Virus record (IMG/VR): IMGVR_UViG_3300031851_000015
Source: an uncultured virus (IMG/VR IMGVR_UViG_3300031851_000015)
Taxonomy: Duplodnaviria > Heunggongvirae > Uroviricota > Caudoviricetes
Reading direction: 5' to 3' (one strand)
Length of the DNA: 64,000 nt
Both the position numbers and the translations under genes were made by a program. The notes under the pieces are model-generated. The model was not told the origin of the DNA and did no database searches. It was given only the letters and a program-made list of their open reading frames with translations. This document shows, one piece after another, positions 1 to 58,173 of this stretch. The first letter of the stretch is position 1. Each line of letters opens with the position of its first letter.

Positions 1-49
1 CATTACGACAATTAAATAAATAGTAATAATTGTTAACATTATATCTTTC

Positions 50-96
50 AAAAAAAAAAAAAGTTTTATTAAACCCCCACCCCCGAAGGGGTGAGG
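50..96 (-). terminator. Rho-independent terminator (CACCCC-UUCG-GGGGUG stem, then a long U tract)
   Basis: Inverted repeat at 78-93 with a CGAA loop (UUCG on the minus strand) and an A run at 50-62, just downstream of the 106..357 gene. Confidence 0.8.
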
Positions 97-105
97 AAAA
101 ATTTA

Positions 106-695: not shown

Positions 696-725
696 TTCGT
701 TATAGATGCGTTATTTTTCTCACTT
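696..725 (-). promoter_or_regulatory. Class B putative promoter (AAGTGAGAAAAAYAACGCATCTATAAYGAA), copy 1
   Basis: 28/30 identical to 3201-3230; lies upstream of a minus-strand gene. Confidence 0.7.
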
Positions 726-1112
726 ATAGAAGATATGCTTACCAAGCTTAAACAACATAGTTTGATGTTTAGCCCAATAAGGTTTTACATAGTCTGCATG
801 ATAGTGAGTTGCGCCTTTTACGTCTAAGCTAATTTCATTATCAATAACCATTTGAGCAATCAATTGACTGTCCCTCCAAGCTATCCTATCAACCTTAGCT
901 TTAAATCTAGTAGGGTCATCATGTTTACCATCATGAGTCCAACTAAATTGTTTTTTATCCCAGACAACAGCACAAATATTGTCTGGGTGTTTTGGTGATT
1001 CAACACGGTTCATAGTAACTTCTGCGATAGCTACTTTCCCCATTAAATCTTCACCTCTACCTTCAAAGAAGATATTTAAAGCCAAACATGTGGCTGCTGC
1101 TGTAAGTAACAT
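720..1112 (-). CDS. Cell wall hydrolase, SleB/Hydrolase_2 family
   Basis: CLALNIFFEGRGE, V-MNRV, QFSW, GATHYHADYVKPYWA and GKHIFY motifs. Confidence 0.9.
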   Translation of the reverse strand: MLLTAAATCLALNIFFEGRGEDLMGKVAIAEVTMNRVESPKHPDNICAVVWDKKQFSWTHDGKHDDPTRFKAKVDRIAWRDSQLIAQMVIDNEISLDVKGATHYHADYVKPYWAKHQTMLFKLGKHIFYK

Positions 1113-3200: not shown

Positions 3201-3230
3201 TTCATTATAGATGCGTTGTTTTTCTCACTT
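3201..3230 (-). promoter_or_regulatory. Class B putative promoter, copy 2
   Basis: Near-identical to 696-725; sits immediately after the tape-measure terminator, at the head of the small-gene block. Confidence 0.7.
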
Positions 3231-3250: not shown

Positions 3251-3276
3251 AAAAAAGGCCACTCCGAAGAGTGACC
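3251..3276 (-). terminator. Rho-independent terminator ending the structural operon
   Basis: GGTCACTC-TTCG-GAGTGGCC-TTTTTT just after the TMP stop codon. Confidence 0.85.
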
Positions 3277-3282
3277 CTATAG

Positions 3283-13028: not shown

Positions 13029-14147
13029 TTATGAGTGGAAGACTGGCAAAATGCCCAAGTTCAATGCGCTCATTTTACGAGTCCAAGAAGCAGCTGCTGC
13101 ATAGTTTGCGTTTGTAGCAAATGCGTTAGTTGCACCTGACCAGTCATAACCCATTGGGTGCATGATAAAGCCATAACGATACCAAATGTTAGTCGAACCA
13201 CCACCAGTGTAAGAGGCCGCATTGCGATCTACTTCAACAGGAGTTGGAACACTTACAGGAGCAGAAGTAATTGCAGCTGGTTTGATCAAGAAAGAACACT
13301 TAGTTGAGCGAGCATTAAGGTCTCCTGATGCAGCACCAGAAATCATTTGGTTTGCACGAGTCATAACCAAACGGAATTTTCCACCAAACACGGTTTGGAA
13401 CTCAAGGTTGCCATCTTGTACACGGGTTTCGTCTACCAAGTTAGCAGCACGCATTTCAGCCATTGTTTCAGGTGAAGTTACGAGATACATAAAGTCAGGT
13501 TCGTAGTCTTTGAAACCCATACCCAACGCTTTAAACAAGCGTTCACCACGAGCAGCACCCGTAGCAGTTGAGTCAAACAAAGCACGCTGATCAGATGCGC
13601 CTGTTGCAGCTGCACCAAATTCACCAAGAGCGTTAACGTCTACAAAGTGACCAGTGTTGGAAGCATCGCCATCTGTGTCAAATGCAATGTAACCACCTGC
13701 GCCTGAACCACCTTTGTCACCAAGAGTAACTTCGCTAAGTGCTACACCTTTAAGGCAAGACAACAAAGCATTACCTTCGTCATCACCACGTACTTGTGCA
13801 AAGTCACGAGCAATTTTGGCAAGACCATCTTGGCGTGAAACTACTTCTTGCAAATTAACTTGTTGCGCACCAAATGTACGAACAGTTTTAACGTAATCTG
13901 CAATGTCAGTTGTGATATCAGTGTAAGTACCATCTGTTGCACTTGACAGCGATGGAACGTTGATGTTAGCTGAAAGTGGCTTGTAGTAACGGAACTGACC
14001 AATAAACGATTCACCGTTAGCATTAATATCGTCACGTTGTCCTACAATACCTGAAGAGTTTAGTTTCTTTTCAGTTGTGTATGCTTCGTCTGCGTAAGCA
14101 GAGATAGCCAACGCTACGTTTTGAAAGTCTGTATTTGTAATAGCCAT
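13029..14147 (-). CDS. Major capsid protein
   Basis: 372 aa; follows the scaffold gene; PVEVDRNA...GG and MHP-GY-W motifs. Confidence 0.85.
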   Translation of the reverse strand: MAITNTDFQNVALAISAYADEAYTTEKKLNSSGIVGQRDDINANGESFIGQFRYYKPLSANINVPSLSSATDGTYTDITTDIADYVKTVRTFGAQQVNLQEVVSRQDGLAKIARDFAQVRGDDEGNALLSCLKGVALSEVTLGDKGGSGAGGYIAFDTDGDASNTGHFVDVNALGEFGAAATGASDQRALFDSTATGAARGERLFKALGMGFKDYEPDFMYLVTSPETMAEMRAANLVDETRVQDGNLEFQTVFGGKFRLVMTRANQMISGAASGDLNARSTKCSFLIKPAAITSAPVSVPTPVEVDRNAASYTGGGSTNIWYRYGFIMHPMGYDWSGATNAFATNANYAAAASWTRKMSALNLGILPVFHS

Positions 14148-14176: not shown

Positions 14177-14851
14177 TTAATAATTAAAACTACCTAGTTG
14201 CCCTTTGGCAGCAAGATTTAACACTTCTTGTGTTGACATCTCACTAAGTGGTTTGTTTTCATTAGTGTTTGAGACACCTGCTGGTGCCGCTGTACCCGCC
14301 CCTGAGTTAGCTTTAACTCGAAACAGGAATGAGTTATCTTCATTATCTGAGTAAGAGGTAATAAAGTCTTGAATAGTAGTGCCTGACTTATGAACCCAAC
14401 TACCGTTGTCATTCTGAACAAGTTGCTCAACAATATCACGGTAAGCTAGTTGACGACTACGATCATTACGGAAATCTAAACTACCAAGCAATGAGTTAAC
14501 AACGCTATCTCGATTTAACTTAGTATTCTCTTCTTCGTAGACTTTTAGTTTAGCTTCAAGATCAGCAATTTTCATTTCTGATAATTCTTGAAGTTTTCCT
14601 TCTTCTTCTAGCCGCTTCATCGTTTCTTGTTTTTGTTGTTGTTCGATTTCAGCAGCTTTCTTAAGAGCCTCGTCTCGCTCTTTAGCCATGCGGTCAACAT
14701 TAGACTTCATTTTAGAAAGTCTATTGGCAACCTCCTGTTCAATTGGATCAACCGTTTCAGATGTTTCCTCCTGAACATTTTCTTGTTCATTAGTCTCATT
14801 GGACTCTGTTGCAGTTACTTCTTCTTCAACTACTGTATTTTCTTCACTCAT
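14177..14851 (-). CDS. Capsid scaffolding protein
   Basis: Acidic N-terminus, coiled coil and FLF...SGAG tail; immediately upstream of the major capsid gene. Confidence 0.8.
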   Translation of the reverse strand: MSEENTVVEEEVTATESNETNEQENVQEETSETVDPIEQEVANRLSKMKSNVDRMAKERDEALKKAAEIEQQQKQETMKRLEEEGKLQELSEMKIADLEAKLKVYEEENTKLNRDSVVNSLLGSLDFRNDRSRQLAYRDIVEQLVQNDNGSWVHKSGTTIQDFITSYSDNEDNSFLFRVKANSGAGTAAPAGVSNTNENKPLSEMSTQEVLNLAAKGQLGSFNY

Positions 14852-14936
14852 AATATTTTCCTTTCAAGCACAGCTTGAGGTTAATGTTTAATTTTGATTC
14901 ACAGAATCTAAAAAGGTCATAGGCTATTACAAATAA

Positions 14937-17900
14937 CTATGGCCCGATACCATACCAATCCTGCCCGTCTTTGAGCGGGGCTAGTATGTCTTTTCTTGTT
15001 ATTTTATTAGGAGGGTCAATAAGACCCTGATCTTTAGCTTCTCTAAGAAGCCTTTGGTAAGTTCTATAAGACATCCCTTGTCTGCGCATTTCTCTAAGGG
15101 TTTTTCTTATAGTATCGCCTTCTAGGGCATCTGCATAGATGGTCCTTAAAGCATCTTTTGCACGTCTTGCTTCACCTATATTAGTAAAGAAAGCATCGTG
15201 AATTGTTCCACTGTCTACGTTATTTTTACGCGCCCATAAATGAAAGCGCCTAACTATAACAGCATCGTTACTGTGGTTTCCATTAACACCTAACCCAATC
15301 CTAGCATCATTAAGAGAGCCTTTGCCTAAAAGCTTTCCATCTTCAGCACTAGATTCGTATATGTTAGATATTTTTCTGTTTGTAACCGGATCTCTAAATT
15401 CAATACGCTCTTGAATTTTAGGACGGTATCTTTGTGTCATTATCTTGCCATCAAATGTAACCCACGGAATATCAACTTTTTGAGTTTCTTCAACGTAGGC
15501 TTTAGCAACTTGTTTCCAATAGTTAATGAAATTATCAGTAACAGGTGCTCTATCAGCAAGATTTTTAGACATAATTCTAGATATTTCTGAGAACTCTTTT
15601 GGCCCAATAATACCCCTGCGAGCATTAGTAAGCTTATTAACAAAGTCACCAACATCAGGATGTATGTCTTGAGCTTGTTTTAATAGTGTACGACCAACGG
15701 GTTCGTTCTTATTAATTAACTCTACAAGTTCACTTCTAAAGCTTTTAAGTTCTTCTACTGTACCTGTTGCGCCTAAGCGTTCAGCTACTTTAATTTTACC
15801 GTCAACAACTCTTAGGTTAGTACCTAGATTATCTTTAGTAACTGTTATGAAGCCTTTTTCGTCAAGTACTTTAGACAACTTATTAGCCACGTTAGCGGTT
15901 TTCGTAGCAGCTCCAGCACCATAAAATGATACCATGTTTTGAGCTTTGGCTGCTTTAGCAAGATCTTCCCATGTAAGATTAGCATCTCTGAGTGCAGGTA
16001 TTTTAAGAAATTCTGGGTCATTAACTGTATCCATTGCAACTAAGTCATAAAGACGGTTTTTTTGAGTTGTAGCTAAAACATTTGAGGCTTGAGATACTGC
16101 CCTGTCGCCTGTAGAAAGCCCGATGATTTGAGCTCCACTAGATGAGGCATCATTTTCAATCATAAGTTTTGTTTTATAACTAGTAAGAGGTTTGCCTTGT
16201 TTAAGGTGTTTATCTATTCTAGCATATTCAATTGCCATTCTACCCATCTTAGGTACTTCTGGTCCTTCTAAACCTCGTATTAACGGGTGTTCGAGAAACT
16301 CTCTAAGACGTCTATCTCTTTGAGTTTTAGACATCATAATATTACCTAGCTCAATAATCTTAGCTTCATTACGTTTAAATATAGCATTACGACCTGCTTG
16401 AGTAAGTGCTTCAGTTCCTGGGCCGATTAAAGCTCCCATTTGAATTCTAAGTTCATCTAAAGCTTCAGTGCTCATATTAACAGCTTTACCTGAATTAAGA
16501 AAAGGTCTAACTAGTTCGCCGCCCGTAGGTGTAAGATATCCTCTGTGATATACTCGCCCCCTAGAATCAATAAACGCTTGAGTCCTAAAATTTTTCCCTC
16601 TTTGAGCATGATACTTAGCAGTAGACATAAGTCCATAACCTTGTTCTCCTCGATTTAAAATTTCATGACGAAACTCATTAATACTGTCATAGTACTTGGA
16701 TCTCCCTCTAGGATCTCTGAATCTAGCAATATCGTCCATAAACCCGAAGAACTCGTTATCAACTCCATATTCAACATCCATTACATGATTAAGCATTTGA
16801 GCCATCTCACGATCAATTTGTTTAGGATCATAATCTGGAAATTTATCTCTAGAAATTAAAGGTATTCCTGTTTCATTACCTCTAGCATCTACGTATGTCT
16901 TTTTATTAGCTTTTACATAAAGCCTATCTCGATCATATATAGTTCCAAGTCTTCTAGCAATAGTAACTTTACGTTCTGATTCTTGAAGTTTAAGTAAAGT
17001 TTTATCTACAACAATTACTTCTCTAGAAATACTATCTGCCCAACCACCTGAAGCTCTACCTGTATCTAAATCTAAAACACCTCTTCGAGTTTTACCTCTA
17101 AATTGAACTTTAATAAGACCTTGATCTACCATAAAGTCAAGTATTTTAGATCCTTCTTTATGAAAGTCTTGCAAAGTATGTTTAGTAAAGGGTATGATAT
17201 TTTCAAAGTCTTTAGAAAATTTTTTACCAATATTGATGGCTAAAGTGTCATAATCAGTGGATTGACCTGACGCCACTAGCTTAGCAATATTAGTTAAACT
17301 ATCTAAAGCTTTTTCATCAAATAATTTAGAAGTAGGTTTTTTGTTTATAATTAAAAACTCAGCATCTAAAAGTCTACGTATAGTTTCTCTATTACGAGCA
17401 GCTAACTTAGTAATCAAAGAGTCAGAAGGTTCAGTTACTAGCTTTTGTAATTTTAAAAGTTTAGCAAAACCAGAATCTTTTTTTAATTGCTTAATAAGTT
17501 GTTTTTTATTAGGGTATTTATCAGTGAACTTTTTAAAATAAATTCTTAATGGCGCTCTGCCTTTAAAGAACATTTTAGTGGCTAATTTTTTACCTTCAGT
17601 TCTACGCCATGCATCAATAAATCTTTGATCTTTTAGCTGGCTATCAATTAGGTTTTCAAAAGTATAATACTTACCCATAATTTGAACTTGAGGTTTGTCT
17701 TGAGATAAATAACTAACAAACATTTCAGAACGCTTGCGAGATCGTGTATCTAACAGCCTAGAAACGTTTTGAACAGCAAATCTATTTTCTGCTCTTAGTA
17801 CAGCCGAAACATCATTCCAAGGTTTTTTATCTTTAGCATAACGTTCAAATACAACTCTTAAGTTTTCAATTACAACAGTTTGTTGATTAACTGAAACTTT

Positions 17901-19292
17901 GTCATCTAATCCTGCAGCAATGCTTTCAATAAAATCTTTTTCATCTTGTTTAAGAAGTTTAGAATTACGCATAAAGTCAATACGTTCTTGATACAAGTTA
18001 AAATCAGGATCATAAATGTTATTGTTTTTAATTTCACCTGTTAACGGATCAGCACTAAAATTACGTTCATCAAACTCATTACCTACTCTACGTCTCGAAG
18101 CAGTTTTACCTGCAAGACTAGTACCTTTATAGTCTGTTAAAGACATAGTTTTAGAGTAGTCATCAGCATCAAGCAAAAACATTTGTCTTACTAAAGCTTT
18201 TTGTTCTGGTGATCTTATCATAGAACTAGGGCGTTTAGCTTGAATATCTACTGCTTGTTCTCTGAGTTTTTGTTTAGGTGCGAATATAGCAGTAGCATTA
18301 GTAGCTTTATTTCTTAAAGCCTGAATAGATAATGCTTTACCTTTAGGTGTAACATACTGTTCAGCTTTAAGCTTTCCTTGTCTAAATAGATTAGCTTGGT
18401 CCATCCCTCCAAGAAGTTTGGCTTGAATATCATAAGCTTGACGCTTTAGCCATGCTCCATAAGACTCTACTTTAGGCGCAACACCGGAAAGTGATTCTTC
18501 TTTCTTTTTAGCAAGATTTGTCTTATTAAGTCTATTAGTAGTTTCTTTTTGAAGCTCTTCTTTAGACTTTAATACAGGCACCAAAGAACTACGACAATTC
18601 CAATGCAAAGGAGGAGTAAAGCGTCTATCGCTAACATCGTAAATTTTTCCATTATGATAAGAACAAATAGGGCTAGTACGACTATCAAGCACAGCAGTAA
18701 ACACATAGCCTTTAACTACATGAGAATTTGCCTCTACAACTTTATTTAAAGCTGTCGTTTGAGTACTAGTTATAGAAGTTCTAGTTAAGGTTTTAGCTTG
18801 ATGTTCAGTAAGCTTAGTAGTTTTAAGCACGTTGTTAATAATATCTTTAGGTGCTTCGCCTTTAGCAAGCCCTGCTTTTACTTTAGATTGTATTCTAACA
18901 AGCTCACCTGCTGAAATGTTTTTCATATTTTGAGTAACTGTTTTAACACCTTTAATATTTGATCCAGTTATTTCAGCAAGTAGTTCTTTACTACGTGGTT
19001 TTGAAACCTTATAGAATTTGTTTAGTTCTTTGTTTAAGTTGTCCGAATGAAAGTCCAGTTGAGATGTTGAAAATTCTTTTAGAGAGCTAGTTTGATGAGT
19101 TAACATTTCTCGACCAAAGCGATTTACTTCAGGAGTAACATCATTAGTTAGTCTCTCTGAAAGAATGTCTCTTAAACGCTTCCTATGCCTACGCATAATA
19201 CGTCTGTTTTGTAACTGTACGCCTTCTTCGTATAATCTTACGTCAGTCATATGATCAACAATACGATCATAAAGTTTTAAGTTGATATCCAT
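14937..19292 (-). CDS. MuF/SPP1-gp7 head morphogenesis protein fused to a T7-like single-subunit DNA-directed RNA polymerase
   Basis: N-terminal FTAVLDSRTSPIC...PPLHWNCRS (MuF); C-terminal DSRGRVY, NDASSSGAQ (motif A), KAQNMVSFYG (motif B), WVTFDG, NHSNDA and IHDAF (motif C). Confidence 0.92.
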   Translation of the reverse strand: MDINLKLYDRIVDHMTDVRLYEEGVQLQNRRIMRRHRKRLRDILSERLTNDVTPEVNRFGREMLTHQTSSLKEFSTSQLDFHSDNLNKELNKFYKVSKPRSKELLAEITGSNIKGVKTVTQNMKNISAGELVRIQSKVKAGLAKGEAPKDIINNVLKTTKLTEHQAKTLTRTSITSTQTTALNKVVEANSHVVKGYVFTAVLDSRTSPICSYHNGKIYDVSDRRFTPPLHWNCRSSLVPVLKSKEELQKETTNRLNKTNLAKKKEESLSGVAPKVESYGAWLKRQAYDIQAKLLGGMDQANLFRQGKLKAEQYVTPKGKALSIQALRNKATNATAIFAPKQKLREQAVDIQAKRPSSMIRSPEQKALVRQMFLLDADDYSKTMSLTDYKGTSLAGKTASRRRVGNEFDERNFSADPLTGEIKNNNIYDPDFNLYQERIDFMRNSKLLKQDEKDFIESIAAGLDDKVSVNQQTVVIENLRVVFERYAKDKKPWNDVSAVLRAENRFAVQNVSRLLDTRSRKRSEMFVSYLSQDKPQVQIMGKYYTFENLIDSQLKDQRFIDAWRRTEGKKLATKMFFKGRAPLRIYFKKFTDKYPNKKQLIKQLKKDSGFAKLLKLQKLVTEPSDSLITKLAARNRETIRRLLDAEFLIINKKPTSKLFDEKALDSLTNIAKLVASGQSTDYDTLAINIGKKFSKDFENIIPFTKHTLQDFHKEGSKILDFMVDQGLIKVQFRGKTRRGVLDLDTGRASGGWADSISREVIVVDKTLLKLQESERKVTIARRLGTIYDRDRLYVKANKKTYVDARGNETGIPLISRDKFPDYDPKQIDREMAQMLNHVMDVEYGVDNEFFGFMDDIARFRDPRGRSKYYDSINEFRHEILNRGEQGYGLMSTAKYHAQRGKNFRTQAFIDSRGRVYHRGYLTPTGGELVRPFLNSGKAVNMSTEALDELRIQMGALIGPGTEALTQAGRNAIFKRNEAKIIELGNIMMSKTQRDRRLREFLEHPLIRGLEGPEVPKMGRMAIEYARIDKHLKQGKPLTSYKTKLMIENDASSSGAQIIGLSTGDRAVSQASNVLATTQKNRLYDLVAMDTVNDPEFLKIPALRDANLTWEDLAKAAKAQNMVSFYGAGAATKTANVANKLSKVLDEKGFITVTKDNLGTNLRVVDGKIKVAERLGATGTVEELKSFRSELVELINKNEPVGRTLLKQAQDIHPDVGDFVNKLTNARRGIIGPKEFSEISRIMSKNLADRAPVTDNFINYWKQVAKAYVEETQKVDIPWVTFDGKIMTQRYRPKIQERIEFRDPVTNRKISNIYESSAEDGKLLGKGSLNDARIGLGVNGNHSNDAVIVRRFHLWARKNNVDSGTIHDAFFTNIGEARRAKDALRTIYADALEGDTIRKTLREMRRQGMSYRTYQRLLREAKDQGLIDPPNKITRKDILAPLKDGQDWYGIGP

Positions 19293-19319: not shown

Positions 19320-19769
19320 TTAAAATTTTGATAGAAACCTTGCAATGTGATGTACAAAAGGTAACATTGTAAGTGCCATTAATAAATTTAAGCCTGTATG
19401 AGCTATTGCTATTCTTAGCGTATCACCCTTAGGCATTCCGTCAGATACTAGCAAACCTGCTAGCCAAATAGTTCCTGTAGTTCCAATGTTTGCCCCCAGT
19501 ACCGCTGCTACAGCAGCAGGTAAAGGAACAACCCCTGAAGCTACTAGCGCAATAATTGCAGTAGTAGAAAGAGAAGACGACTGCCAAAGCAGTGTCATTA
19601 TAATTGCTCCAAAGAACATATAAATCGGATTAGCAATAAACCAATTTAAATGGTCTACATTACCTATCGACTTCATTCCTCCGGAAAACATTTTAAGCCC
19701 TACATAAAATACTATAAGGCCAACTACGATTTGTAAGTAATTGTTTGTTAGTACCTGTAAATAATTCAT
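19320..19769 (-). CDS. Na+/phosphate cotransporter family protein (single repeat)
   Basis: QSSS and GANIGTT signature motifs; hydrophobic. Confidence 0.85.
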   Translation of the reverse strand: MNYLQVLTNNYLQIVVGLIVFYVGLKMFSGGMKSIGNVDHLNWFIANPIYMFFGAIIMTLLWQSSSLSTTAIIALVASGVVPLPAAVAAVLGANIGTTGTIWLAGLLVSDGMPKGDTLRIAIAHTGLNLLMALTMLPFVHHIARFLSKF

Positions 19770-19771
19770 AA

Positions 19772-21343
19772 CTATTCTTCAATATCTATCTGTGGATCAG
19801 CGCTAGTTTGAACTGCTAACGGATCAGTTTGTATTTCTTCAATTGCTTCTTCATCGCTGTAATCAGCTGGTAAGAAGTCATTGTACTTAGCAATGTTAAT
19901 CCAAGTTGAACGGCTAATAATCCCTGATTGATACCACTCAGAAACAAGGCGCATAGCACCTTCACCACCTACAATAGGAGAAAAGTCACTAGACATTTGG
20001 AATTCTAAGTCATCACCTGTATACATAGTGTTGTAATACCAGTTAAGCATAAATGCCATTACTTCGCGAATAGTACCTGAGACTTTAGCGTTAAGTGTAC
20101 CTAGCTGTGCTGTCTGAGAAGCATTACGGATTTCTAGTGCTACACCTGAAGCTGCTTGCTCTGGTGAAAGCATTCGAATACCCATCTTAGCCATTTCTTC
20201 TACTGTACCTTGAATAGCCTTTTCCATGTCGCCTAAAGCTGACGTAGGTGTTTCAAGTACAGTAATAGATTCGTCTTTGCGTACTCTAAGCCAAGTACCT
20301 AACCCTGCGTTTACGATGTCGTCAAATTCCTCGTCTGTCATATCTGATTGTACAACAGGGGTATAAGTAGCAGCACCGTAAAGCAAATGGTTTCTTCTCG
20401 ATACTTTATTATAGAGAGAAACTTCACGATCAACTAGCGGCATAAGAACAGGTTCAACCGGTTCATATTGACCGTTAAGAGGCCAAGCGGGAATACGCAT
20501 TAAGCGTTCACCAAACATAGTTGGATAAACTGTATTAACTTTTGTAAAACCTATTTCGCTAACTGATTCTTTGTATTCTTGAGATATATCACCATTAAGA
20601 ACTTTAATTTCATTGTTAGTATCTGGGTGTTCATAGTAGTCTAATACAAGACGACCTGATTCATCAATGTAGTGATCACAGACTGTGTCTACATAATCAG
20701 GATGCCAAGGATTTTCTGGTTTATACTTTTCTACTAAGTAACGAGTAACCCAACGAGTTAAAGTCTTTTGTCGTGTAATAGGGTGAGTAGATAGCTGAAT
20801 GTTAATAACGTTTTCAGCTTCAATTACTACTGGATACGGCTTAATCATAGCCCGTTCTTCAGGAGTTAAATTATCATACTCTTGTTCGCTAACTTGTGGC
20901 CTATCTACATAAACCCAAGCTCTTGATGTTTGAAGTTCTTCCCAGAGAGCATTATCAAGAAAGTTAAATAACGATCTACCGTCTAGTGTAAAATCATTTT
21001 TAAGCCAGTCTTTAGCATCATCTGGTAGTTCTTCTGGAAGTTTTAAATGAGAGTCTTTACGTAATAAAGCACTAATAAGTACCTTACAGTATTGAGCTGT
21101 CAAACCTGGAAGTTCTGACTCTGAACGATAAAAGTCATACTGTCGTTGGCTCATGCTAGGTGAAAAAGGAATAAGTAAGTTTTTATATTCCGGTTCTAAA
21201 TATTCATCGTGTGCTTTAACGTTATCTTGTCCTTGCAGAACCGCCCTTGACCGTTTCCAAAGTGGTTTCATAGAATGATAACTTGCACTTGGATCGGCAA
21301 CAGACTTTTTAACACTTTTAGTTGGTTTAGTTAACTGTGCCAT
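19772..21343 (-). CDS. Portal protein
   Basis: 523 aa; heads the capsid module; resembles DUF4055/SPP1-type portals. Confidence 0.8.
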   Translation of the reverse strand: MAQLTKPTKSVKKSVADPSASYHSMKPLWKRSRAVLQGQDNVKAHDEYLEPEYKNLLIPFSPSMSQRQYDFYRSESELPGLTAQYCKVLISALLRKDSHLKLPEELPDDAKDWLKNDFTLDGRSLFNFLDNALWEELQTSRAWVYVDRPQVSEQEYDNLTPEERAMIKPYPVVIEAENVINIQLSTHPITRQKTLTRWVTRYLVEKYKPENPWHPDYVDTVCDHYIDESGRLVLDYYEHPDTNNEIKVLNGDISQEYKESVSEIGFTKVNTVYPTMFGERLMRIPAWPLNGQYEPVEPVLMPLVDREVSLYNKVSRRNHLLYGAATYTPVVQSDMTDEEFDDIVNAGLGTWLRVRKDESITVLETPTSALGDMEKAIQGTVEEMAKMGIRMLSPEQAASGVALEIRNASQTAQLGTLNAKVSGTIREVMAFMLNWYYNTMYTGDDLEFQMSSDFSPIVGGEGAMRLVSEWYQSGIISRSTWINIAKYNDFLPADYSDEEAIEEIQTDPLAVQTSADPQIDIEE

Positions 21344-21732: not shown

Positions 21733-21754
21733 TTATTCTTAAACGTCAGGTATT
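21733..21754 (-). promoter_or_regulatory. Class A T7-like phage promoter (AATACCTGACGTTTAAGAATAA)
   Basis: Identical 22-mer at 21825-21846 and 49598-49619; upstream of the head operon. Confidence 0.85.
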
Positions 21755-21824: not shown

Positions 21825-21846
21825 TTATTCTTAAACGTCAGGTATT
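21825..21846 (-). promoter_or_regulatory. Class A T7-like phage promoter
   Basis: Same 22-mer, abutting the stop codon of the 21846..22199 gene. Confidence 0.85.
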
Positions 21847-22199
21847 TACTTTTTGCCAAAAAACTTACTAACACCTCGCATACCAATACTAGCACTAACA
21901 ATACCTCCAAGAGAATATTGATACCACGCTGGCATAGCTTCAAGGGCTGCAAAGCCTTGAGAAACAATAACATTACCCCAATCACCACAGAAGGCTAAAA
22001 TCAGAGGTATTGAAAATAATAAAGTAATCCACTCGTCTTTCCACGAGTTTTGAGTAGCTTTAATTGCTTCAATATCCCAATCAATTTCACCTGTAGCTTG
22101 CTTAACTTTAATTTCGGCGTTAGCCTTTTGTACAGCAACTTTACCATCTAGGTAAGTAGTAGCTAAACCACCAACAGCACCTAAAATTTGTCCTATCAT
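21846..22199 (-). CDS. Holin-like membrane protein
   Basis: SWKDEW motif plus TM segments; adjacent to the endolysin. Confidence 0.6.
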   Translation of the reverse strand: MIGQILGAVGGLATTYLDGKVAVQKANAEIKVKQATGEIDWDIEAIKATQNSWKDEWITLLFSIPLILAFCGDWGNVIVSQGFAALEAMPAWYQYSLGGIVSASIGMRGVSKFFGKK

Positions 22200-22651
22200 G
22201 AGGCTAACTCAAAGTGAGGACCATCAATAAATGGGCGTCTATTTTGTGATCTTCGAGTATCAATGTAAGACATCATAGCAGCTTCTGCTGTACCTTCCCA
22301 AGAGCGAATGTCAGGGATATGCCAAGCAGCACCCCAACGTATTGGAACACCTTCTGCTATAGCTGCTTCTTTCATAGCGTCTGCAAGATCATCATAAACA
22401 TTTAACTCCCAACAACCTTTACCGTCTACGTAAGCCATAAGATCTACAGCATTACCATCAAGGTGTTTTGATTTTAATGTTTGAGACTTACCTGCAGCAA
22501 CAAGTTTCTTTTGTTCTTCAAGTGTTCTAAGTCCGTACACAACACCAAAATCTACTTTAGTAAGCTGGATAGCTTTGTGTACAACATTAACCAAGTTATG
22601 ATTGACGCCTTCTAACTTGTCTAAACTTCTTTTACTTAATTTAAAACTCAT
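22196..22651 (-). CDS. Endolysin, peptidase M15 (L-Ala-D-Glu) family
   Basis: F-LS-RS---L-GV, GLRT-EEQ, SKHLDGNAVD, IRWG--W and DGPHFEL motifs. Confidence 0.9.
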   Translation of the reverse strand: MSFKLSKRSLDKLEGVNHNLVNVVHKAIQLTKVDFGVVYGLRTLEEQKKLVAAGKSQTLKSKHLDGNAVDLMAYVDGKGCWELNVYDDLADAMKEAAIAEGVPIRWGAAWHIPDIRSWEGTAEAAMMSYIDTRRSQNRRPFIDGPHFELAS

Positions 22652-22652
22652 A

Positions 22653-22865
22653 TTAATGTCCTTTATGTTTTTCATTACCAAGCCATACAGCAAAGCAGCC
22701 TGTTAGTGCGCCCATGCACACTGAAACTAAGCCACTCTGCTGTACTGTAGGATCTGGTAATGACATGTACCAATGCACAGATTGATATGTTAAAACTGTA
22801 ACAGCTAACATCATTAACCGAGGCATAATTTGCCACTGTAAAATTCGTTCCATTGCTATTGCCAT
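22653..22865 (-). CDS. Small 2-TM membrane protein (lysis module)
   Basis: Two hydrophobic helices; next to the endolysin. Confidence 0.6.
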   Translation of the reverse strand: MAIAMERILQWQIMPRLMMLAVTVLTYQSVHWYMSLPDPTVQQSGLVSVCMGALTGCFAVWLGNEKHKGH

Positions 22866-33314: not shown

Positions 33315-33998
33315 TTATAACTTTTCTTTAATAAACATTCTTACTAGATCTGCTACAATATCACTACGAACAATATCATCTACCGTAAACTTAACTACAG
33401 GTAGTGGTATATAGTTCTTTTTAATTAAGGCACAAAACTTTAATAAGTCTTGTCCTTTACGCACATCTGATTGTGCTGGATCTCCCATAAGTACTAACTT
33501 AGAATTTTCCCCCAGCCGAGTACTAATTGCTTTAAGTTCATCGATCGAAAGGTTTTGAGCTTCGTCTACAAGTACTAAAGAGTTCTCAAAAGAACGCCCC
33601 CGTATTGTTTCAATAGGTTGAATTTCAATTTCACCTTTATTAATCATGTACTTATACTTTTCTTTACCGAAAGCCCGTTCAAATACTTCAAGCATAGGTA
33701 AAAGCCAAGGGGTCATTTTTTCTTGAATAGTTCCAGGAAAATGACCTATACTCTTACCTGTAGGTACGTTAGCACGAGTAATTACAATTTTCTCATAACC
33801 GCCTTTTTGGTAAAGATGTGAGACCGTTCCTGCACTGCAGAAGGTTTTTCCGGTTCCAGCGCAACCAATAGTAACAGTAATAGGATAGACTTTAATAGAG
33901 CGAATGAGTTTATCTTGCTTTTCATTCTTTGGTATGACATGGAATCCTATCCTGTGTATATTATTTTTAGTAGCATAACGAGATTTTCTTTTGCTCAT
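33315..33998 (-). CDS. phoH: PhoH-like ATPase
   Basis: GCAGTGKT Walker A; IRGRSF, DEAQN, GDPAQSD and DIVRS motifs. Confidence 0.95.
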   Translation of the reverse strand: MSKRKSRYATKNNIHRIGFHVIPKNEKQDKLIRSIKVYPITVTIGCAGTGKTFCSAGTVSHLYQKGGYEKIVITRANVPTGKSIGHFPGTIQEKMTPWLLPMLEVFERAFGKEKYKYMINKGEIEIQPIETIRGRSFENSLVLVDEAQNLSIDELKAISTRLGENSKLVLMGDPAQSDVRKGQDLLKFCALIKKNYIPLPVVKFTVDDIVRSDIVADLVRMFIKEKL

Positions 33999-40941: not shown

Positions 40942-43900
40942 TTAAGCATTAATTAATGTTTGAACCACTGAGTAAGTAGTTGAAGTTGCTGAAGCTGCTG
41001 TGGCTAGCAACCTAACATTTCCTGAGCTAATGTCAACATCATAAGTTGCTAAGGCTGAGCCGCCTGTATTTACAGTGCCATATTCAGTGGCAACTGCAGT
41101 AGTTCCATCATGGGCTATTAATAACTCTGAAATAGTAATATTTACCCCTGTCTTAGCAGTAACAATATATTTAGCTGCTTCATAATTTGTTGAAAAAGTT
41201 GCAATAGCAGTTTGAGTTGTAGAAGATGTATTAGAAGATACTGTAGTAATATCTGCATCGTTTAAAGTCAATTTATCGCTGGTCAAAGTTCCAGTGACGT
41301 CTACACCTGTGCTAGTAGTGGCGAGTTTAACAGATGCGTCATAAAATATTTCTACTTGAGCATCTTTATAGATTTTAACCATGTTGTCAGAACCTGCTTG
41401 AAGGTTCATAGTTGATCCATTAGTGGTTAAATATAAATTACCTGTTCCCTCGTCTTTGATATAGCTGTCTGACCCATCATGGTAAATTTGCAAATCAGAA
41501 CCAGCCCCGAATATGGCTTTACCACTATCAGCAAATAATACGTTTCCACTAAATTGTGTTCCAGAAGGATTAGTAGTAAGTCTAAGAGAGTTTTGGTAAT
41601 ATAATTTAGTCTGATAATTTGCTAATTCAATGTATTTAGCATTATTTGATCTAGTTAACATTACTACAATATCAGCCCAAATATAATTTATTGTATTAGT
41701 TGCTGATTCCCAGTAATTAGCACGAAAGCCGCTAGTAGCATTTTCATGATATACTTGTAAATCTGTACTATTGCCAAATTTTATTCTTTTCTGTGCTCCG
41801 CTTGGATTAACTGTATCTCCAAATACGAGATTACCAGTCATAGTGCCACCAGCTTTTGGCAATGCTGCATCAGCAGTAGTACCTTGTGCGGCAGTAGCAT
41901 AATCACTTGAATCAAATGCTTTAACTTGGGCTAAGTTAGTTACTTCAGAGTCCATTAAAGCACCTGCAGCAGTTACATTAGTTGTATCTGTTACATCTGC
42001 AGAAGCCTCAATTCCGTCAATTTTAGTTTTATCTGCTGCAGACATTAATCCTGATGCAGAAGTGGTAGCAGCACTATAAACAGTATCGCTATCATCTACC
42101 CATGCATAATCACTACCATTCCATGATAAAATTTGGTTAGTACCTGCCGAAGACTGATTAAGATGTGTATCTACGTCACTATTAGCGTATCCTGCAGGAA
42201 CACTTGCCCAATCATAATCACTACCATTCCAAGACAAATACTCTCCGTTTGAGGCTGTAGAAGTATTTAAATGAGAGTCTACATTACTATTGCCGTATTG
42301 AGCGCTTCCCGAAATTTGAAGAGAGTTACCTGCATCATTATAGTTTAAAGTAATGCCTGTTCCAGCTGTAAGTAATCCACCTACAACATCTTGGATCGCC
42401 TCTGTTGTAGCTGCTGTTGGATTCCATTGGGTACCATCATAAACTTTAAGAGATCCCCCACCTATATTAAAGTACAAAGCACCTGTTACAAGAGCATCAC
42501 CATCATTGTCAACAGTTGGGTCTGACGACTTAGACCCCAAGTAACGATCATCAAAGTTATCTAAAGCTGTTTCAGCTGCTGTTTGAGCAGTCTGGGCGGC
42601 TGTAGCACTTGATGCTGCATTGGTTTCGGAACTTGCAGCTGCCGTAGCACTACTAGCAGCATTAGTTTCTGCAGTTTCTGCGTTAGTTTCTGCAGTTTCT
42701 GCGTTAGTTTCAGCAGTCTCTGCAGCAGTTTTAGCAGTCTCTGCAGCGACCTTTGAAGTATTAGCAGCAGTTGCAGAGTTAGAAGCGTTAGTAGCACTTG
42801 TAGCCGCAGCAGTAGCGGAGTTCCCAGCGTTAGTTGCAGAAGTAGACGCGCTCGTAGCACTAGTAGTAGCTGAAGTAGCAGCGTTAGTAGCCGTTACAGA
42901 AGGTGCTTGCCACGCAGAACCACTATAAAATTTAATTACATTATCGGTGCTATTATAATACATAGCGCCTTCTACTAAAGCATTTCCGTCATTGTCAACT
43001 GAAGGATCAGAACTTTTAGTTCCTAAGAACTTATCATCGAAGTTATCAAAAACTAATTCAGTTGCAGCTTGTGCAGTTTGTGCTGCTGTAGCAGACGTAG
43101 CGGCATTAGTAGCAGAAGTTGAAGCGCCGCTTGCAGAAGTAGCAGCATTAGTAGCTGAAGTAGATGCCCCACTAGCAGAAGTAGCAGCGTTAGTCTCAGA
43201 AGTAGCTGCATTGGTAGCTGAAGTTGCCGCTGATGTTGCACTAGAAGCAGAGGCCGTTGCTGAGTTACTTGCATTAGTTTCTGAAGTTGCAGCTGCCGTA
43301 GCAGAATTACTAGCATTAGTTTCGCTAGTAGCAGCATTAGTTTCGCTTGTTGATGCCGCACTTTCAGAGTTACTTGCATTTGTAGCTGAAGTAGCAGCAG
43401 CCGTAGCGCTATTACCAGCATTAGTTTCTGAAATAGCTGCATTAGTTTCTGCAGTCTCTGCAGCTGTCTTAGCTGTATTAGAAGCAGTAGCAGAATTTGC
43501 AGAGTTAGTTGCCGAAGTAGCTGCTGCTGTAGCTGAATTTGCTGCATTGGTTTCTGAAGCAGTAGCATTAGTAGCACTTGTAGAGGCACTGCTTGCGCTT
43601 GAAGCAGCAGCTGTAGCTGAATTCCCTGCGTTTGTTTCTGATGTAGCTGCATTGGTAGCACTTGTAGCTGCTGCTGTAGCTGAATTTGCTGCATTGGTTT
43701 CAGCAGTTTCTGCGTTAGTCTCTGCGGTCTCTGCAGCTGTTTCGCTTGCAGCCGCTGATGTTGCAGACCCCGCTGCTGCTGTTGCGGAGTTACTTGCATT
43801 AGTCGCTGAAGTAGCTGCCGAAGTAGCGCTATTACCTGCATTGGTTTCTGCTGTTTCAGCCGCTGTCTTAGCAGTTTCAGCCGCTGTTTTAGCTGTATTA

Positions 43901-45285
43901 GAAGCAGTAGCAGAGTTTGAAGAATTGCTAGCTGAAGTTGCTGCATTAGTTTCGCTTGTAGCTGCATTGGTAGCACTTGTAGCTGCGTTGCTTGCTTGAG
44001 TAGTTGCCGTACTAGCACTATTAGACGCACTGGTTGCTGAAGTAGCTGCGTTAGTTTCAGATGTAGCAGCATTATTAGCTGACGTTAAAGAAGAGGCCGC
44101 TGAAGTAGCTGCATTGGTAGCACTTGTAGCTGCTGCTGTAGCACTGTTAGAAGCTGCAACACTAGGTGCTTCCCAAGCTGTTCCATTATAAAATTTAATA
44201 GCATTGCTTGTACTGTTGTAGTACATAGCCCCTTCTACTAAGGCATTACCGTCATTGTCAACTGTTGGATCTGATGTTTTAGTGCCTAAAAATTTATCAT
44301 CAAAATTATCAAACAATAACTCTACTGCTGCTCTATCTGTTGCGGTATCAGTTTTATAATTAAGAGCATCAGCTGCAGAAGAACTAGCCGATGTTGCGCT
44401 ATTAGCTGCACTTACAGCATTTGCTGCTGCATTAGAAGAATGATTTCCTGCTGTAGTAGCTGAATTAGCCGCTGCTGTAGCAGAGGAACCTGCGCTAGAT
44501 GCACTGTTTGCAGCATTAGTTTCAGAAGTAGCTGAAGCAGTTTGGCTAGCTGTTGCGCTAGTAGCAGAATTAGAAGCAGACGTAGCAGATCCCGCAGCTG
44601 CAGTAGCACTGTTACCTGCATTAGTTTCTGAAGTAGCTGCGTTGGTTTCACTAGTTGCTGCATCCGCTGCTTTCGTAGTAGCCGTTGAAGCACTCGCTGA
44701 AGCATTAGTAGCACTTGTGGCTGCATTGGTTTCGGCAGTTTCAGCGTTAGTTTCTGCTGTTTCAGCTGCGACCTTAGAAGTGTTAGCTGCTGTCGCGGAA
44801 GTAGCCGCTGATGTAGCCGAAGTAGCTGCTGCAGTAGCACTGTTAGCTGCATTAGTAGCTGATGTAGTTGCTAATGCAATAGGATATTGCCAAGTATTTA
44901 CGTTGTATACGCCTAAAGCAGAGGTTGTAGTATCAAAGTACATAGCTCCGTTTTGAAGAGCATTACCATCATTATCGAGGCTAGGTGCTGAAGATTTAGA
45001 TCCTAAAAACACATCATCAACAGTATCTGCCGCTGTTTCTGTAGCGACCTTTAAAGCAGTAATAGACGCAATTAAATTAGCACCGCCAAGGTTTACGTCT
45101 TGTATTTGTTGTCCTGCTGAGTTACTTATTATTACGTGAAAATCTCCATTACTATCAATAGAGGCATTTGTGATAGAATCACCTTTAGCACCTTGACCAC
45201 CTGTTCTAGACAAAGTAAGGTTAACATCTTGTGATGTGCTTGTTAAGGCGTAGTTGTTTCCATTAATTGTAATAGCATAAGACAT
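40942..45285 (-). CDS. Ala/Thr/Ser-rich coiled-coil side tail fibre (1447 aa)
   Basis: AATSATN/AETAETN heptads punctuated by four DD-FLG-K-SDP-VDNDG-AL--GA-Y knots. Confidence 0.8.
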   Translation of the reverse strand: MSYAITINGNNYALTSTSQDVNLTLSRTGGQGAKGDSITNASIDSNGDFHVIISNSAGQQIQDVNLGGANLIASITALKVATETAADTVDDVFLGSKSSAPSLDNDGNALQNGAMYFDTTTSALGVYNVNTWQYPIALATTSATNAANSATAAATSATSAATSATAANTSKVAAETAETNAETAETNAATSATNASASASTATTKAADAATSETNAATSETNAGNSATAAAGSATSASNSATSATASQTASATSETNAANSASSAGSSATAAANSATTAGNHSSNAAANAVSAANSATSASSSAADALNYKTDTATDRAAVELLFDNFDDKFLGTKTSDPTVDNDGNALVEGAMYYNSTSNAIKFYNGTAWEAPSVAASNSATAAATSATNAATSAASSLTSANNAATSETNAATSATSASNSASTATTQASNAATSATNAATSETNAATSASNSSNSATASNTAKTAAETAKTAAETAETNAGNSATSAATSATNASNSATAAAGSATSAAASETAAETAETNAETAETNAANSATAAATSATNAATSETNAGNSATAAASSASSASTSATNATASETNAANSATAAATSATNSANSATASNTAKTAAETAETNAAISETNAGNSATAAATSATNASNSESAASTSETNAATSETNASNSATAAATSETNASNSATASASSATSAATSATNAATSETNAATSASGASTSATNAATSASGASTSATNAATSATAAQTAQAATELVFDNFDDKFLGTKSSDPSVDNDGNALVEGAMYYNSTDNVIKFYSGSAWQAPSVTATNAATSATTSATSASTSATNAGNSATAAATSATNASNSATAANTSKVAAETAKTAAETAETNAETAETNAETAETNAASSATAAASSETNAASSATAAQTAQTAAETALDNFDDRYLGSKSSDPTVDNDGDALVTGALYFNIGGGSLKVYDGTQWNPTAATTEAIQDVVGGLLTAGTGITLNYNDAGNSLQISGSAQYGNSNVDSHLNTSTASNGEYLSWNGSDYDWASVPAGYANSDVDTHLNQSSAGTNQILSWNGSDYAWVDDSDTVYSAATTSASGLMSAADKTKIDGIEASADVTDTTNVTAAGALMDSEVTNLAQVKAFDSSDYATAAQGTTADAALPKAGGTMTGNLVFGDTVNPSGAQKRIKFGNSTDLQVYHENATSGFRANYWESATNTINYIWADIVVMLTRSNNAKYIELANYQTKLYYQNSLRLTTNPSGTQFSGNVLFADSGKAIFGAGSDLQIYHDGSDSYIKDEGTGNLYLTTNGSTMNLQAGSDNMVKIYKDAQVEIFYDASVKLATTSTGVDVTGTLTSDKLTLNDADITTVSSNTSSTTQTAIATFSTNYEAAKYIVTAKTGVNITISELLIAHDGTTAVATEYGTVNTGGSALATYDVDISSGNVRLLATAASATSTTYSVVQTLINA

Positions 45286-49441: not shown

Positions 49442-49603
49442 CTAAGGATACCAAAGTGATATCAATAACCCCCCGTGCTGTATACACAGAGAGTGTAGAG
49501 AGGATACTATCGGGGGGCATTTAGAGCATTCTCTTTCAAGTATCAGTAGAGAAGTCCTAGATATCACTTTGGCAGAGCCTTAGCAAAGTTATTAAGTTTA
49601 TTC
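49442..49603 (-). ncRNA. Putative structured RNA or leader (three-way junction) from the class A promoter
   Basis: 13-bp perfect inverted repeat (49451-49463/49560-49572) enclosing two hairpins, in a 300-nt non-coding gap. Confidence 0.5.
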
Positions 49604-49620
49604 TTAAACGTCAGGTATTA
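49598..49620 (-). promoter_or_regulatory. Class A T7-like phage promoter (TAATACCTGACGTTTAAGAATAA)
   Basis: Aligns gap-free to the T7 promoter, with G at the +1 position (49603); heads the packaging/fibre operon. Confidence 0.85.
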
Positions 49621-52807: not shown

Positions 52808-52830
52808 TTATTCTTTAACGTCAACTATAT
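52808..52830 (-). promoter_or_regulatory. Degenerate class A promoter (ATATAGTTGACGTTAAAGAATAA)
   Basis: The 3' 16 nt match the consensus; sits at the nrdJ/sulfotransferase junction. Confidence 0.5.
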
Positions 52831-56808: not shown

Positions 56809-56977
56809 CTGCTCCTATATGTGCTGTGAATTTAGACATTTCTTGAAACAATAAAAAGAATATAATACTTGTAATAGGATTAACTAAGTGATAACCCATA
56901 ATTTCTGAGACTAAAGTAAAGGCTAATAAACCTACACTTACAATCCACAGGGCTACTGCCATTGGTGATACTTCCAT
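56783..56977 (-). CDS. Small membrane protein
   Basis: Two hydrophobic segments. Confidence 0.55.
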   Translation of the reverse strand: MEVSPMAVALWIVSVGLLAFTLVSEIMGYHLVNPITSIIFFLLFQEMSKFTAHIGADDGDNSHS

Positions 56978-57441
56978 TATAAAAACCTTTTCTTTAATAC
57001 ATTAACATACCTCTTGGTTTTTGTAGTAGGAAACTCTTTTGGTACAAACCTAATAGCAGCAATTTGTCTATTGTAAAACCTAGGTGTAACATTGTCAGGT
57101 AAATACTCTGTCATACAATCAGATAACATTTGAAGGTAAGCTTCTGCATAATACAGTCCACCTTTAGTTTTATAAAGGTCTACAATCTCAAATCTAAAGT
57201 TATCTTTTTTGTACTTGCCAATATCTTGTTTTAAAGCTTTAGAAGAACCTACATAGGTTTTCCATGTCATTGCTTTACCATAAGTCCTAGACTTCTTTTT
57301 ACCACCATGCCAAAATTGTTTCTTTCCAATATAATACTGTTTAGTAGCTAAATTTTCTATACAATATACAAAGCCAAACCAATCACTAGGATCAAACTTT
57401 TTATTATATTCCCAGTGACCCTTATCTGTTAACATAAGCAT
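56977..57441 (-). CDS. GIY-YIG family endonuclease
   Basis: GFVYCI-N----QYYIGKK, W--Y-GS, YAE and FYN motifs. Confidence 0.75.
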   Translation of the reverse strand: MLMLTDKGHWEYNKKFDPSDWFGFVYCIENLATKQYYIGKKQFWHGGKKKSRTYGKAMTWKTYVGSSKALKQDIGKYKKDNFRFEIVDLYKTKGGLYYAEAYLQMLSDCMTEYLPDNVTPRFYNRQIAAIRFVPKEFPTTKTKRYVNVLKKRFL

Positions 57442-58150: not shown

Positions 58151-58173
58151 TTGTTCTTTAACGTCAGGTATTA
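58151..58173 (-). promoter_or_regulatory. Class A T7-like phage promoter (TAATACCTGACGTTAAAGAACAA)
   Basis: 21/23 identical to 49598-49620; directly upstream of the AAGGAG RBS of the exonuclease. Confidence 0.85.

Follow-up and report, generated by a model that had tools for sequence, protein, structure and literature searches.

The DNA considered here is a stretch of 64,000 nucleotides (nt) from an uncultured marine, long-tailed virus of the Caudoviricetes (IMG/VR record IMGVR_UViG_3300031851_000015), and the whole of it is called the window below. At 14937..19292 on the minus strand it contains a gene in which a MuF-type head protein is fused to a T7-type RNA polymerase (RNAP). We consider it probable, at about 65%, that the product is loaded into the capsid, ejected with the DNA and used as the early transcriptase in a relay of two polymerases, a judgement made from sequences and predicted structures. 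The architecture of the protein, its fold, the conservation of its catalytic residues, the occurrence of two RNAP genes, the classes and positions of two promoter-like motifs and the cysteine-free composition of the polymerase are what the analysis shows.

A T7-type polymerase behind a MuF module

The gene and its parts are as follows, residue numbers being those of the fused protein:

14937..19292, minus strand: the MuF-linker-RNAP gene, 1451 amino acids plus stop, with both Pfam domains on one unbroken frame
18273..19292, minus strand: MuF / SPP1-gp7-type head-morphogenesis module, residues 1-340 (PF04233, phrog_241, AlphaFold2 model)
18582-18893, minus strand: Pfam MuF core, residues 134-237 (Phage_Mu_F, PF04233, E 3.9e-14)
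17664..18272, minus strand: helical linker domain, residues 341-543, confidently folded in both AlphaFold2 models
14940..17663, minus strand: complete T7-type single-subunit RNAP, residues 544-1451 (VIA-align, Foldseek, family profile)
16128..16154, minus strand: motif A, NDASSSGAQ, residues 1047-1055; D1048 corresponds to T7 D537 in the hidden Markov model (HMM) alignment
15918..15947, minus strand: motif B, KAQNMVSFYG, residues 1116-1125; K1116, Y1124 and G1125 correspond to T7 K631, Y639 and G640
15261..15464, minus strand: specificity-loop region from WVTFDG to NHSNDA, residues 1277-1344, corresponding to T7 ~739-787 (aligned stretch 697-857)
15189..15203, minus strand: motif C, IHDAF, residues 1364-1368; D1366 corresponds to T7 D812 in the HMM alignment

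A sequence-only reading of this DNA had described a single uninterrupted open reading frame (ORF) of 1451 amino acids, and the ORF list and the translation bear this out. The same ORF matches both head morphogenesis (phrog_241, E 1.8e-52) and RNA polymerase (phrog_414, E 5.5e-24) in PHROGs. The RNA_pol family of Pfam (PF00940) matches residues 1035-1414 with E 8.4e-7 and 28.6 bits, the cut-off being 22. An AlphaFold2 model of residues 341-1451, built from a 48-sequence alignment reaching down to 17% identity, has a predicted local distance difference test score (pLDDT) of 84.1 and a predicted template modelling score (pTM) of 0.76. When Foldseek was run with this model, T7 RNAP complexes ranked first (E 1.1e-20, about 1000 aligned columns), and VIA-align placed model residues 208-1109 on T7 RNAP residues 42-882 with Z 30.8 and an rmsd of 3.3 Å over 520 residues. 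The mitochondrial RNAPs gave Z values of about 26-28 and the N4 mini-vRNAP 17.0; the best structural match of the module is T7 RNAP. Residues 544-1451 align to T7 RNAP residues ~34-883, the equivalent of the N-terminal domain included, and since the Foldseek and VIA-align matches span the whole T7 fold, residues about 544-1451 are taken to be a complete T7-type polymerase. The sequence-only reading had assigned only the last ~550 residues to the polymerase, which was too few, the module being about 900 residues long.

A single-sequence phmmer search with the whole protein against the PDB sequences found no RNAP; only the family profile found one, namely T7 RNAP, which it aligns in three colinear blocks with E 1.1e-24. 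The profile alignment pairs D1048 with D537, K1116 with K631, Y1124 with Y639, G1125 with G640, H1340 with H784 and D1366 with D812 of T7 RNAP. All 48 sequences have the same residue at D1048, K1116, Y1124, G1125, D1343 and D1366, and 43 of them keep H1365. Both catalytic aspartates are placed by the HMM alignment of the sequences. The motifs DSRGRVY (residues 909-915), WVTFDG (1277-1282) and NHSNDA (1339-1344) are found at the positions to which they map, as are the other T7 landmarks quoted earlier, and in the right order. The specificity-loop region is well conserved among lineages and forms beta strands in the model. Judged from the conserved residues, the polymerase module is predicted to be catalytically competent.

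The match to Phage_Mu_F (PF04233) scores 53.8 bits against a gathering cut-off of 29.6. The two parts of the MuF signature, AVLDSRTSPIC (residues 200-210) and PPLHWNCRS (residues 227-235), lie together at 18588-18695, where a position of about 18590-18710 had been given, and D203, C210, P227, P228, H230, C233, R234 and S235 are the invariant MuF residues across the family alignment. An AlphaFold2 model of residues 1-545 has a pLDDT of 86.1. A Foldseek search of this model against BFVD gave 97 matches at E ≤ 0.001, and among the 50 listed many are named as phage minor capsid or head morphogenesis proteins. In two of those listed MuF is joined to a different cargo: the one from Xanthomonas phage Xp12 carries an ADP-ribosyltransferase, and the other is a Zeta-toxin-domain protein. 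The same model had no match in the PDB at E ≤ 0.001. As modelled, the fold of the MuF module is typical of head-morphogenesis proteins encoded next to the portal, and in other phages it carries other enzymes. Residues 341-543 fall outside the RNAP structural matches, and as these matches begin only at model residue ~204 (residue 544), the linker is regarded as a separate helical domain.

The gene is surrounded by head genes:

19772-21343, minus strand: portal gene, in the late operon of the fusion gene and directly upstream of it (phrog_145, E 3.8e-53)
19320-19769, minus strand: ORF of 149 amino acids that separates the fusion gene from the portal gene; its Na/Pi-cotransporter domain matches PF02690 with E 2.2e-14
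14177-14851, minus strand: scaffold gene, next after the fusion gene
13029-14147, minus strand: major capsid gene, after the scaffold gene

Pfam and PHROGs agree with the order portal, Na/Pi ORF, fusion gene, scaffold, major capsid that had been read from the sequence. The adjacency to the portal that characterizes the MuF family is present in the form of portal, 149-residue ORF and then fusion gene. Downstream of the major capsid gene follow adaptors, a tail tube and a 2168-residue tape measure, all on the minus strand (Pfam, PHROGs), which holds every large ORF of the window, and the tail module with its tape measure is that of a siphovirus. Contigs from RNA libraries of three studies span the fusion gene, one of them covering 14610-17065 (2456 nt) with 6 differences. 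These contigs give gene coverage only; transcription, strand and starts are not readable from them, and no pile-ups of starts or ends are reported among those covering the fusion gene.

Distribution of the fusion

Metagenomic protein clusters at 90% identity were searched with the polymerase part (residues 850-1451), and 432 clusters match at E ≤ 1e-5. Among the 120 clusters listed, MuF is present in 115, with both precomputed Pfam domains in 97 and MuF only in 18, while the other five are short proteins of 817-1180 amino acids with RNA_pol only. An exhaustive search of the representatives at 50% identity gave 137 matches at E ≤ 1e-3. MuF was found in all of the 12 long distant representatives scanned (at least 1264 amino acids, ~25-48% identity), and in two of these, about 25% identical to the query, RNA_pol scores better (E about 1e-25). 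In IMG/VR at least 278 contigs encode a relative. Of 80 loci scanned, 38 have a full-length portal gene upstream of the fusion gene. An assembly artefact, which would have undone the sequence-only reading, is excluded by the 115 of 120 listed clusters and the 278 contigs. Judged by this spread among diverged sequences, the fusion is not an artefact and is old. The deep branch P0214 has no confirmed locus in IMG/VR.

Three members of the family, P0129, P0138 and P0141, are 1821-2073 amino acids long, and the polymerase part of the query matches them in two to three separate stretches. This suggests large insertions within the polymerase, possibly inteins or extra domains. In EBPR siphovirus 1 (JF412302.1, 25771-31144) a homologue of 29% identity is split by the HNH endonuclease gene gp48 into gp47, a 'head protein' of 1052 amino acids, and gp49 of 431 amino acids. 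There are short non-coding flanks around gp48, and the break is near the polymerase palm, so that it looks like a homing-endonuclease or intron-type insertion. In the partial 54-kb record of this phage only the split fused RNAP was detected, and no canonical one.

Among 185,579 species genomes of cellular organisms only two loci were found, both in one metagenome-assembled genome, and the family therefore belongs to free phages that appear to be lytic. Among isolates the roseophages DSS3_VP1 and DSS3_PM1 (Naomviridae, Noahvirus) come closest, with proteins that are 62% identical over the full length. The annotation of DSS3_VP1 gp108 (YP_010105321.1) and of the homologue in DSS3_PM1 goes no further than 'head morphogenesis' or 'minor head protein-like'. 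Naomviridae and their relatives have been linked in print to roseobacters and possibly to Pelagibacter. The fusion family is part of the Naomviridae-like marine phages, which were recently reported to be abundant (PMC12669031).

DSS3_VP1 resembles the window phage in its synteny, in having a canonical RNAP (gp080) and in its classes of promoter-like motifs. It differs from the window lineage in having the Dcd and Dtm enzymes of the deoxyuridine (dU) pathway, and its DNA is described as containing dU in place of thymidine (PMC8323127, PMC12697855). The Dcd of DSS3_VP1 matches PF00383 with E 8.6e-27. The virus record nearest to the window (G001) has no match to PF00383 or HD, and tblastn with Dcd and Dtm of DSS3_VP1 found nothing at E ≤ 1 in the window or in G001. 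A dU-containing genome as the reason for carrying a virion RNAP, as in AR9/PBS2, is thus not supported for the window lineage. The ribonucleotide reductase of the window (52825-54696, minus strand) is a single protein of 623 amino acids with a B12-dependent (class II) insertion domain, unlike that of DSS3_VP1, which has separate alpha and beta subunits. The nucleotide-metabolism modules of the two phages thus differ, which is consistent with the missing genes of the dU pathway.

A second, canonical polymerase

Besides the fused enzyme, both G001, which has 25% of the sampled 31-mers in common with the window, and DSS3_VP1 encode a canonical RNAP in a frame of 722-735 amino acids (PF00940, E 3e-88 and 1e-82). 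In DSS3_VP1 it is gp080, annotated as 'RNA polymerase'. According to blastn the window is circularly permuted relative to G001, and about 3.3 kb is absent between window positions 64000 and 1. In G001 it is this missing 3.3 kb that holds the canonical RNAP gene, which starts about 76 nt beyond window position 1. The fused frame was found in 20 of 20 further long records. The canonical RNAP was found in seven of the eight that are at least 65% complete, both 100%-complete ones included, and in one of the 12 less complete ones. Overall, nine of ten records that are at least 65% complete have it.

The canonical RNAP matches T7 RNAP with E 4e-62 and the fused RNAP with a BLASTP E of 0.022 only. 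A recent duplication of the canonical RNAP as the origin of the fused one is ruled out by this value, and the two are, as far as their sequences tell, old paralogues. Since the canonical RNAP is a separate protein, the fused one is not needed as a general phage transcriptase, which fits a dedicated 'first round' role. The sequence-only reading had the idea of delivery, which is supported computationally, and it overlooked this second RNAP just outside the window, and thereby the logic of a relay.

Cysteine composition

The only cysteines of the fused protein are C210 and C233 of the MuF motif; the 1197 residues that follow have none. By the same count, made with a regular expression, there is no cysteine after the MuF motif in 39 of the 43 evaluable family members, four members that could not be evaluated being left out, and the other four of the 43 have one or two. 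Nine canonical RNAPs have 7-11 cysteines each. The virion proteins of the window contain 0-0.54% cysteine (tape measure 0 of 2168 residues, tail fibre 0 of 1447, scaffold 0, portal 0.38%, major capsid 0.54%). Among its intracellular enzymes, ribonucleotide reductase, primase-helicase and DNA polymerase contain about 1.6% (up to 1.65%) and PhoH 1.3%; the large terminase has 0.68%. Being free of cysteine, unlike the intracellular enzymes of the same phage, the polymerase module has the composition of a virion protein.

Promoter-like elements

Two classes of promoter-like elements, here called E and M, are found in the window:

3205..3228, minus strand: E element 1, GTGAGAAAAACAACGCATCTATAA, right after the tape-measure terminator
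3255-3278, minus strand: terminator hairpin after the tape-measure stop, read on the minus strand
700..723, minus strand: E element 2, GTGAGAAAAATAACGCATCTATAA, inside the early region; 0 copies expected by chance
21733..21754, minus strand: M element, AATACCTGACGTTTAAGAATAA, upstream of the portal gene, with a second copy at 21825-21846, both near the portal
49598-49619, 52808-52829 and 58151-58172, minus strand: further copies of the M element, on the coding strand

E was searched for as GTGAGAAAA-N5-GCATCTATAA with at most 3 mismatches; the short forms of the two elements are GTGAGAAAA-N5-GCATCTATAATGA for E and AATAGGGTGCGTTAAAGAGGGG for M. E is present in eight of nine related records. 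Its 15 copies are all on the coding strand, with 0 in the reversed-pattern controls, and have the consensus AAAAGTGAGAAAA..A.G.ATCTATAATGA. Every copy precedes the canonical RNAP gene by a few kb, and each record whose flank was read has one copy immediately after the terminator hairpin and T-run that end the late operon. About 25 nt of E, GTGAGAAAA included, is kept between the phages with 35% GC content and the roseophage DSS3_VP1 with its high-GC host. E has no -35-like hexamer at 16-18 nt, and a sigma70 consensus scan of the window gave 11 sites, compared to 10.5 expected by chance, none of them at the E sites. The E variants GCATC and GTATC pair with two variants of the specificity loop, but these are at the same time two clades.

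At window positions 1-100, on the minus strand, there is a strong hairpin, CCTCACCCCTTCGGGGGTGGGGG, followed by a T-run and then by GATATAATG, just upstream of the canonical RNAP gene outside the window. The hairpin and T-run may form a terminator, and the sequence after them an E-core-like promoter that lacks the GTGAGAAAA part. A similar core-only copy of E is found near 67793 in DSS3_VP1.

At up to 3 mismatches M has four copies in the window, all on the coding strand, where 0 were expected in 100 shuffles. M occurs on the coding and the other strand 5 versus 1 times in the window, counted by its core, 9 versus 1 times in G001 and 5 versus 0 times in the related record G008. In DSS3_VP1 the element has the form ATAGG(G)TG(A/C)CGTTAAAGA, with 14 copies on the coding strand versus 0 on the other; three of them are just upstream of the portal gene and three 1.3-1.9 kb downstream of the RNAP gene. 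The complete record G004 has the variant CCAGGGGACGCTAAAG, which, when up to 4 mismatches are allowed, is present five times and only on the coding strand. In G001 as well as in G004 one copy of M lies right after the canonical RNAP gene. From the copies across the records, E appears to be conserved throughout the family, while M varies between lineages around a GACGYTWAAGA core. Both elements end in TATA/TAAAG-like stretches, which we take to be reminiscent of promoters of the T7/T3 type.

Proposed mechanism and alternatives

In the relay proposed here the fused protein would be a late product of the head operon, which M-type promoters precede, and as the head is assembled its MuF module would bring it into the capsid close to the portal. 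It would be packaged in few copies and, when the next cell is infected, leave the capsid together with the DNA. There it would act as the first transcriptase, initiating at the E promoters that head the early operon, and transcription of this operon would reach the gene for the canonical T7-like RNAP of ~720 amino acids. The canonical enzyme would then read the lineage-specific M promoters of the replication and structural genes, the fusion gene included. Packaging, ejection, activity and the pairing of polymerases with promoters are steps that we infer. The lines that favour them are the complete and conserved polymerase, the MuF fold, the place in the late head operon, the second RNAP, the non-sigma70 character of E and the absence of cysteine from the module. 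It is these independent lines, all of them computational, that speak for the earlier proposal of MuF as a packaging and ejection tag for an RNAP.

Several observations weigh against this relay. The position of T7 R627 is occupied by Ala1112 (A, Q, S or T in the family); the neighbouring Lys1113 is at least 90% conserved in the family. A protein of 1451 amino acids would have to traverse the tail of a siphovirus. E ends in a perfect TATAAT, and since it does, a host promoter that is driven by its -10 sequence and has an A-rich element upstream is possible at E. The complete record G006 has no match to E at up to 3 mismatches. There is a terminator-like hairpin between E element 2 and the canonical RNAP gene, and for this reason that gene may need a promoter of its own. 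Reading of E by the fused RNAP and of M by the canonical one is a pairing that we infer from position and logic only. A comparison of the specificity loops with the motif variation is confounded by phylogeny, identity in the loop following the overall identity (59-93% versus 53-86% for the fused enzymes and 34-87% versus 51-82% for the canonical ones). Furthermore, 'RNA polymerase' does not occur in the main text of the paper on DSS3_VP1 (PMC8323127).

The alternative that survives best leaves the fusion packaged and ejected, and lets the host RNAP read E, while the fused enzyme pulls the genome in, primes replication or reads other promoters. The perfect TATAAT and the A-rich upstream tract agree with this, as does the T7-like genome layout with early genes, RNAP, DNA metabolism and structure, since the T7 early class of promoters is read by the host RNAP; nor does any result tie E to the fused enzyme. 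A host promoter would however not need the about 25 nt that are conserved, the -35-like hexamer is lacking at 16-18 nt, the sigma70 scan passes over E, and the fused enzyme has kept a complete and conserved promoter-specificity loop. All in all we find this version unlikely.

Less probable again, and by a clear step, is that the protein is never packaged and works in the cell as a late RNAP, for instance for the late genes, with another role for its MuF-like part. Although the gene does sit with the late genes in expression, the late operon is behind M promoters that it has in common with the middle genes, and the canonical RNAP is available for these. The 0 cysteines in 1197 residues, as in virion proteins, and the conserved MuF fold and portal adjacency also speak against it. 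That the polymerase module is an inactive relic with a structural or ejection function only, as its strong divergence (the phmmer search that found no RNAP) and the lost R627 equivalent might suggest, is hardly credible when none of the tested metal- and nucleoside triphosphate-binding residues varies among the 48 sequences, down to 17% identity, and the whole T7 fold is kept with Z 30.8.

The ejected early transcriptase thus stays the preferred reading. A wider version of it, in which MuF is a general module for capsid loading and ejection, and an abundant group of marine siphophages (Naomviridae and relatives) is independent of the host RNAP by means of the fused enzyme at a family-wide E promoter and the canonical one, switched on by it, at fast-evolving M promoters, is tentative and in our opinion has somewhat less than an even chance of being right. 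Within this wider version the injected enzyme might also help to draw the genome in.

Relation to known systems

Virion-carried RNAPs are known in several architectures, namely gp50 of N4, the enzymes of crAss-like phages, the multisubunit enzymes of phiKZ/AR9 and the tape-measure fusion of P23-45. What is new here is the MuF carrier, the siphovirus setting and a polymerase that is T7-like rather than N4-like; a virion-carried phage RNAP in itself is known.

A close parallel is N4 and its relatives (Schitoviridae), where a capsid-carried RNAP of the T7 family, gp50, is ejected for the early genes and a second RNAP, RNAPII (gp15/gp16), follows (PMC5512222, PMC13434306, PMC11445570). N4 gp50, from a podovirus, is described as a protein of ~3500 amino acids that has its RNAP domain in the centre and also contains a zincin-like peptidase region (PMC5512222). 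The fused protein, on the other hand, has 1451 amino acids, an N-terminal MuF carrier and a siphovirus background, and Pfam finds only MuF and RNA_pol in it, so that neither the giant size nor the peptidase region nor the podovirus setting of the N4-like virion RNAPs is found. Its fold is nearer to T7 RNAP (Z 30.8) than to N4 mini-vRNAP (Z 17.0), and the N4 vRNAP is absent from the 19 PDB sequences matched by the family profile. The second RNAP is here a full-length single chain, while RNAPII of N4 is a split heterodimer. In the account given in PMC5512222, modules of the N4-like virion RNAP type occur only in N4-like phages.

With T7 RNAP the fused module has in common the whole fold, the N-terminal domain, the palm motifs A and C, the K, Y and G of motif B and the specificity-loop region. 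It differs by its low identity (13-17%), the Ala at R627 and the lack of cysteine, and, unlike T7 RNAP, it sits behind 543 residues of head protein and linker and is encoded in a head operon. Thermus phage P23-45 is also a siphovirus in which a structural protein of the virion carries an RNAP for the first genes, among them the gene for a second, non-virion RNAP (PMC10770324). There, however, the enzyme is a two-barrel RNAP on the tape measure, while here it is a right-hand polymerase of the T7 type on a MuF protein of the head interior.

MuF proteins have been described as head components fused to enzymatic domains whose delivery into the host is likely (PMC5512222), and a class of polymorphic toxins has an N-terminal MuF with C-terminal cargo (PMC5576092). 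The fused protein resembles the cargo fusions of the SPP1 gp7 / Mu F type in having MuF at the N-terminus near the portal and a variable enzyme at the C-terminus. It differs from the MuF toxins and from the MuF-ADP-ribosyltransferase of Xp12 in that the cargo is a complete RNA polymerase. In contrast to the polymorphic toxins, no toxin domain was found in it, the next gene is the scaffold gene, and no prophages were found. The word 'polymerase' does not occur in the text consulted of the MuF toxin paper (PMC5576092), and 'RNA polymerase' does not occur in the main text of PMC12697855 or PMC12669031, the figures or supplements of which might label the canonical RNAP. The literature search found no paper that describes a MuF-RNAP fusion, in agreement with the remark in the sequence-only reading that none was known to be characterized.

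Other genes of the window

One RNA-library contig joins 19319 to 19773 and thus skips the Na/Pi ORF upstream of the fusion gene, which means that a variant without this ORF exists. In DSS3_VP1 the equivalent slot is occupied by a tRNA-Asn, and the slot seems to be a place where accessory genes are variably inserted. Another phosphate-related gene of the window is PhoH at 33315-33998 on the minus strand.

The tail-fibre gene (40942-45285, minus strand, 1447 amino acids) consists largely of degenerate 21-nt (7-amino-acid) repeats, especially at 42560-44830. There are dozens of copies at 60-80% identity, and the local GC content is 0.41-0.45, compared to ~0.35 elsewhere in the window. A cell-wall hydrolase of the SleB-type Hydrolase_2 family is encoded at 720-1112 (minus strand) in the putative early region, with E element 2 directly after it, and an M15 peptidase endolysin is encoded at 22196-22693 (minus strand) in the late region. 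Both hydrolases are also present in DSS3_VP1. A SegE-like homing endonuclease of the GIY-YIG type (56977-57507, minus strand; PF19835, E 5.3e-30) is found between the primase-helicase and the 5'-3' exonuclease, and its gene overlaps the start of the latter.

Significance

The annotation 'head morphogenesis' given to these proteins in the databases hides a polymerase. As DSS3_VP1, which grows on Ruegeria pomeroyi, is a cultured member of the group, the prediction can be tested directly. If it is true, an ordinary MuF protein of the head interior would bear a full T7-type polymerase in a long-tailed phage, a compact architecture for a virion RNAP. In the wider version given above it would also be the first T7-type virion polymerase outside the N4-like podoviruses and would provide two new orthogonal polymerase-promoter pairs. 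The cysteine-free signature may be usable as a sequence marker for injected phage proteins. For these phages themselves it would explain how infection starts, namely by a fully phage-encoded transcription in two steps from promoters that can be read in the genome.

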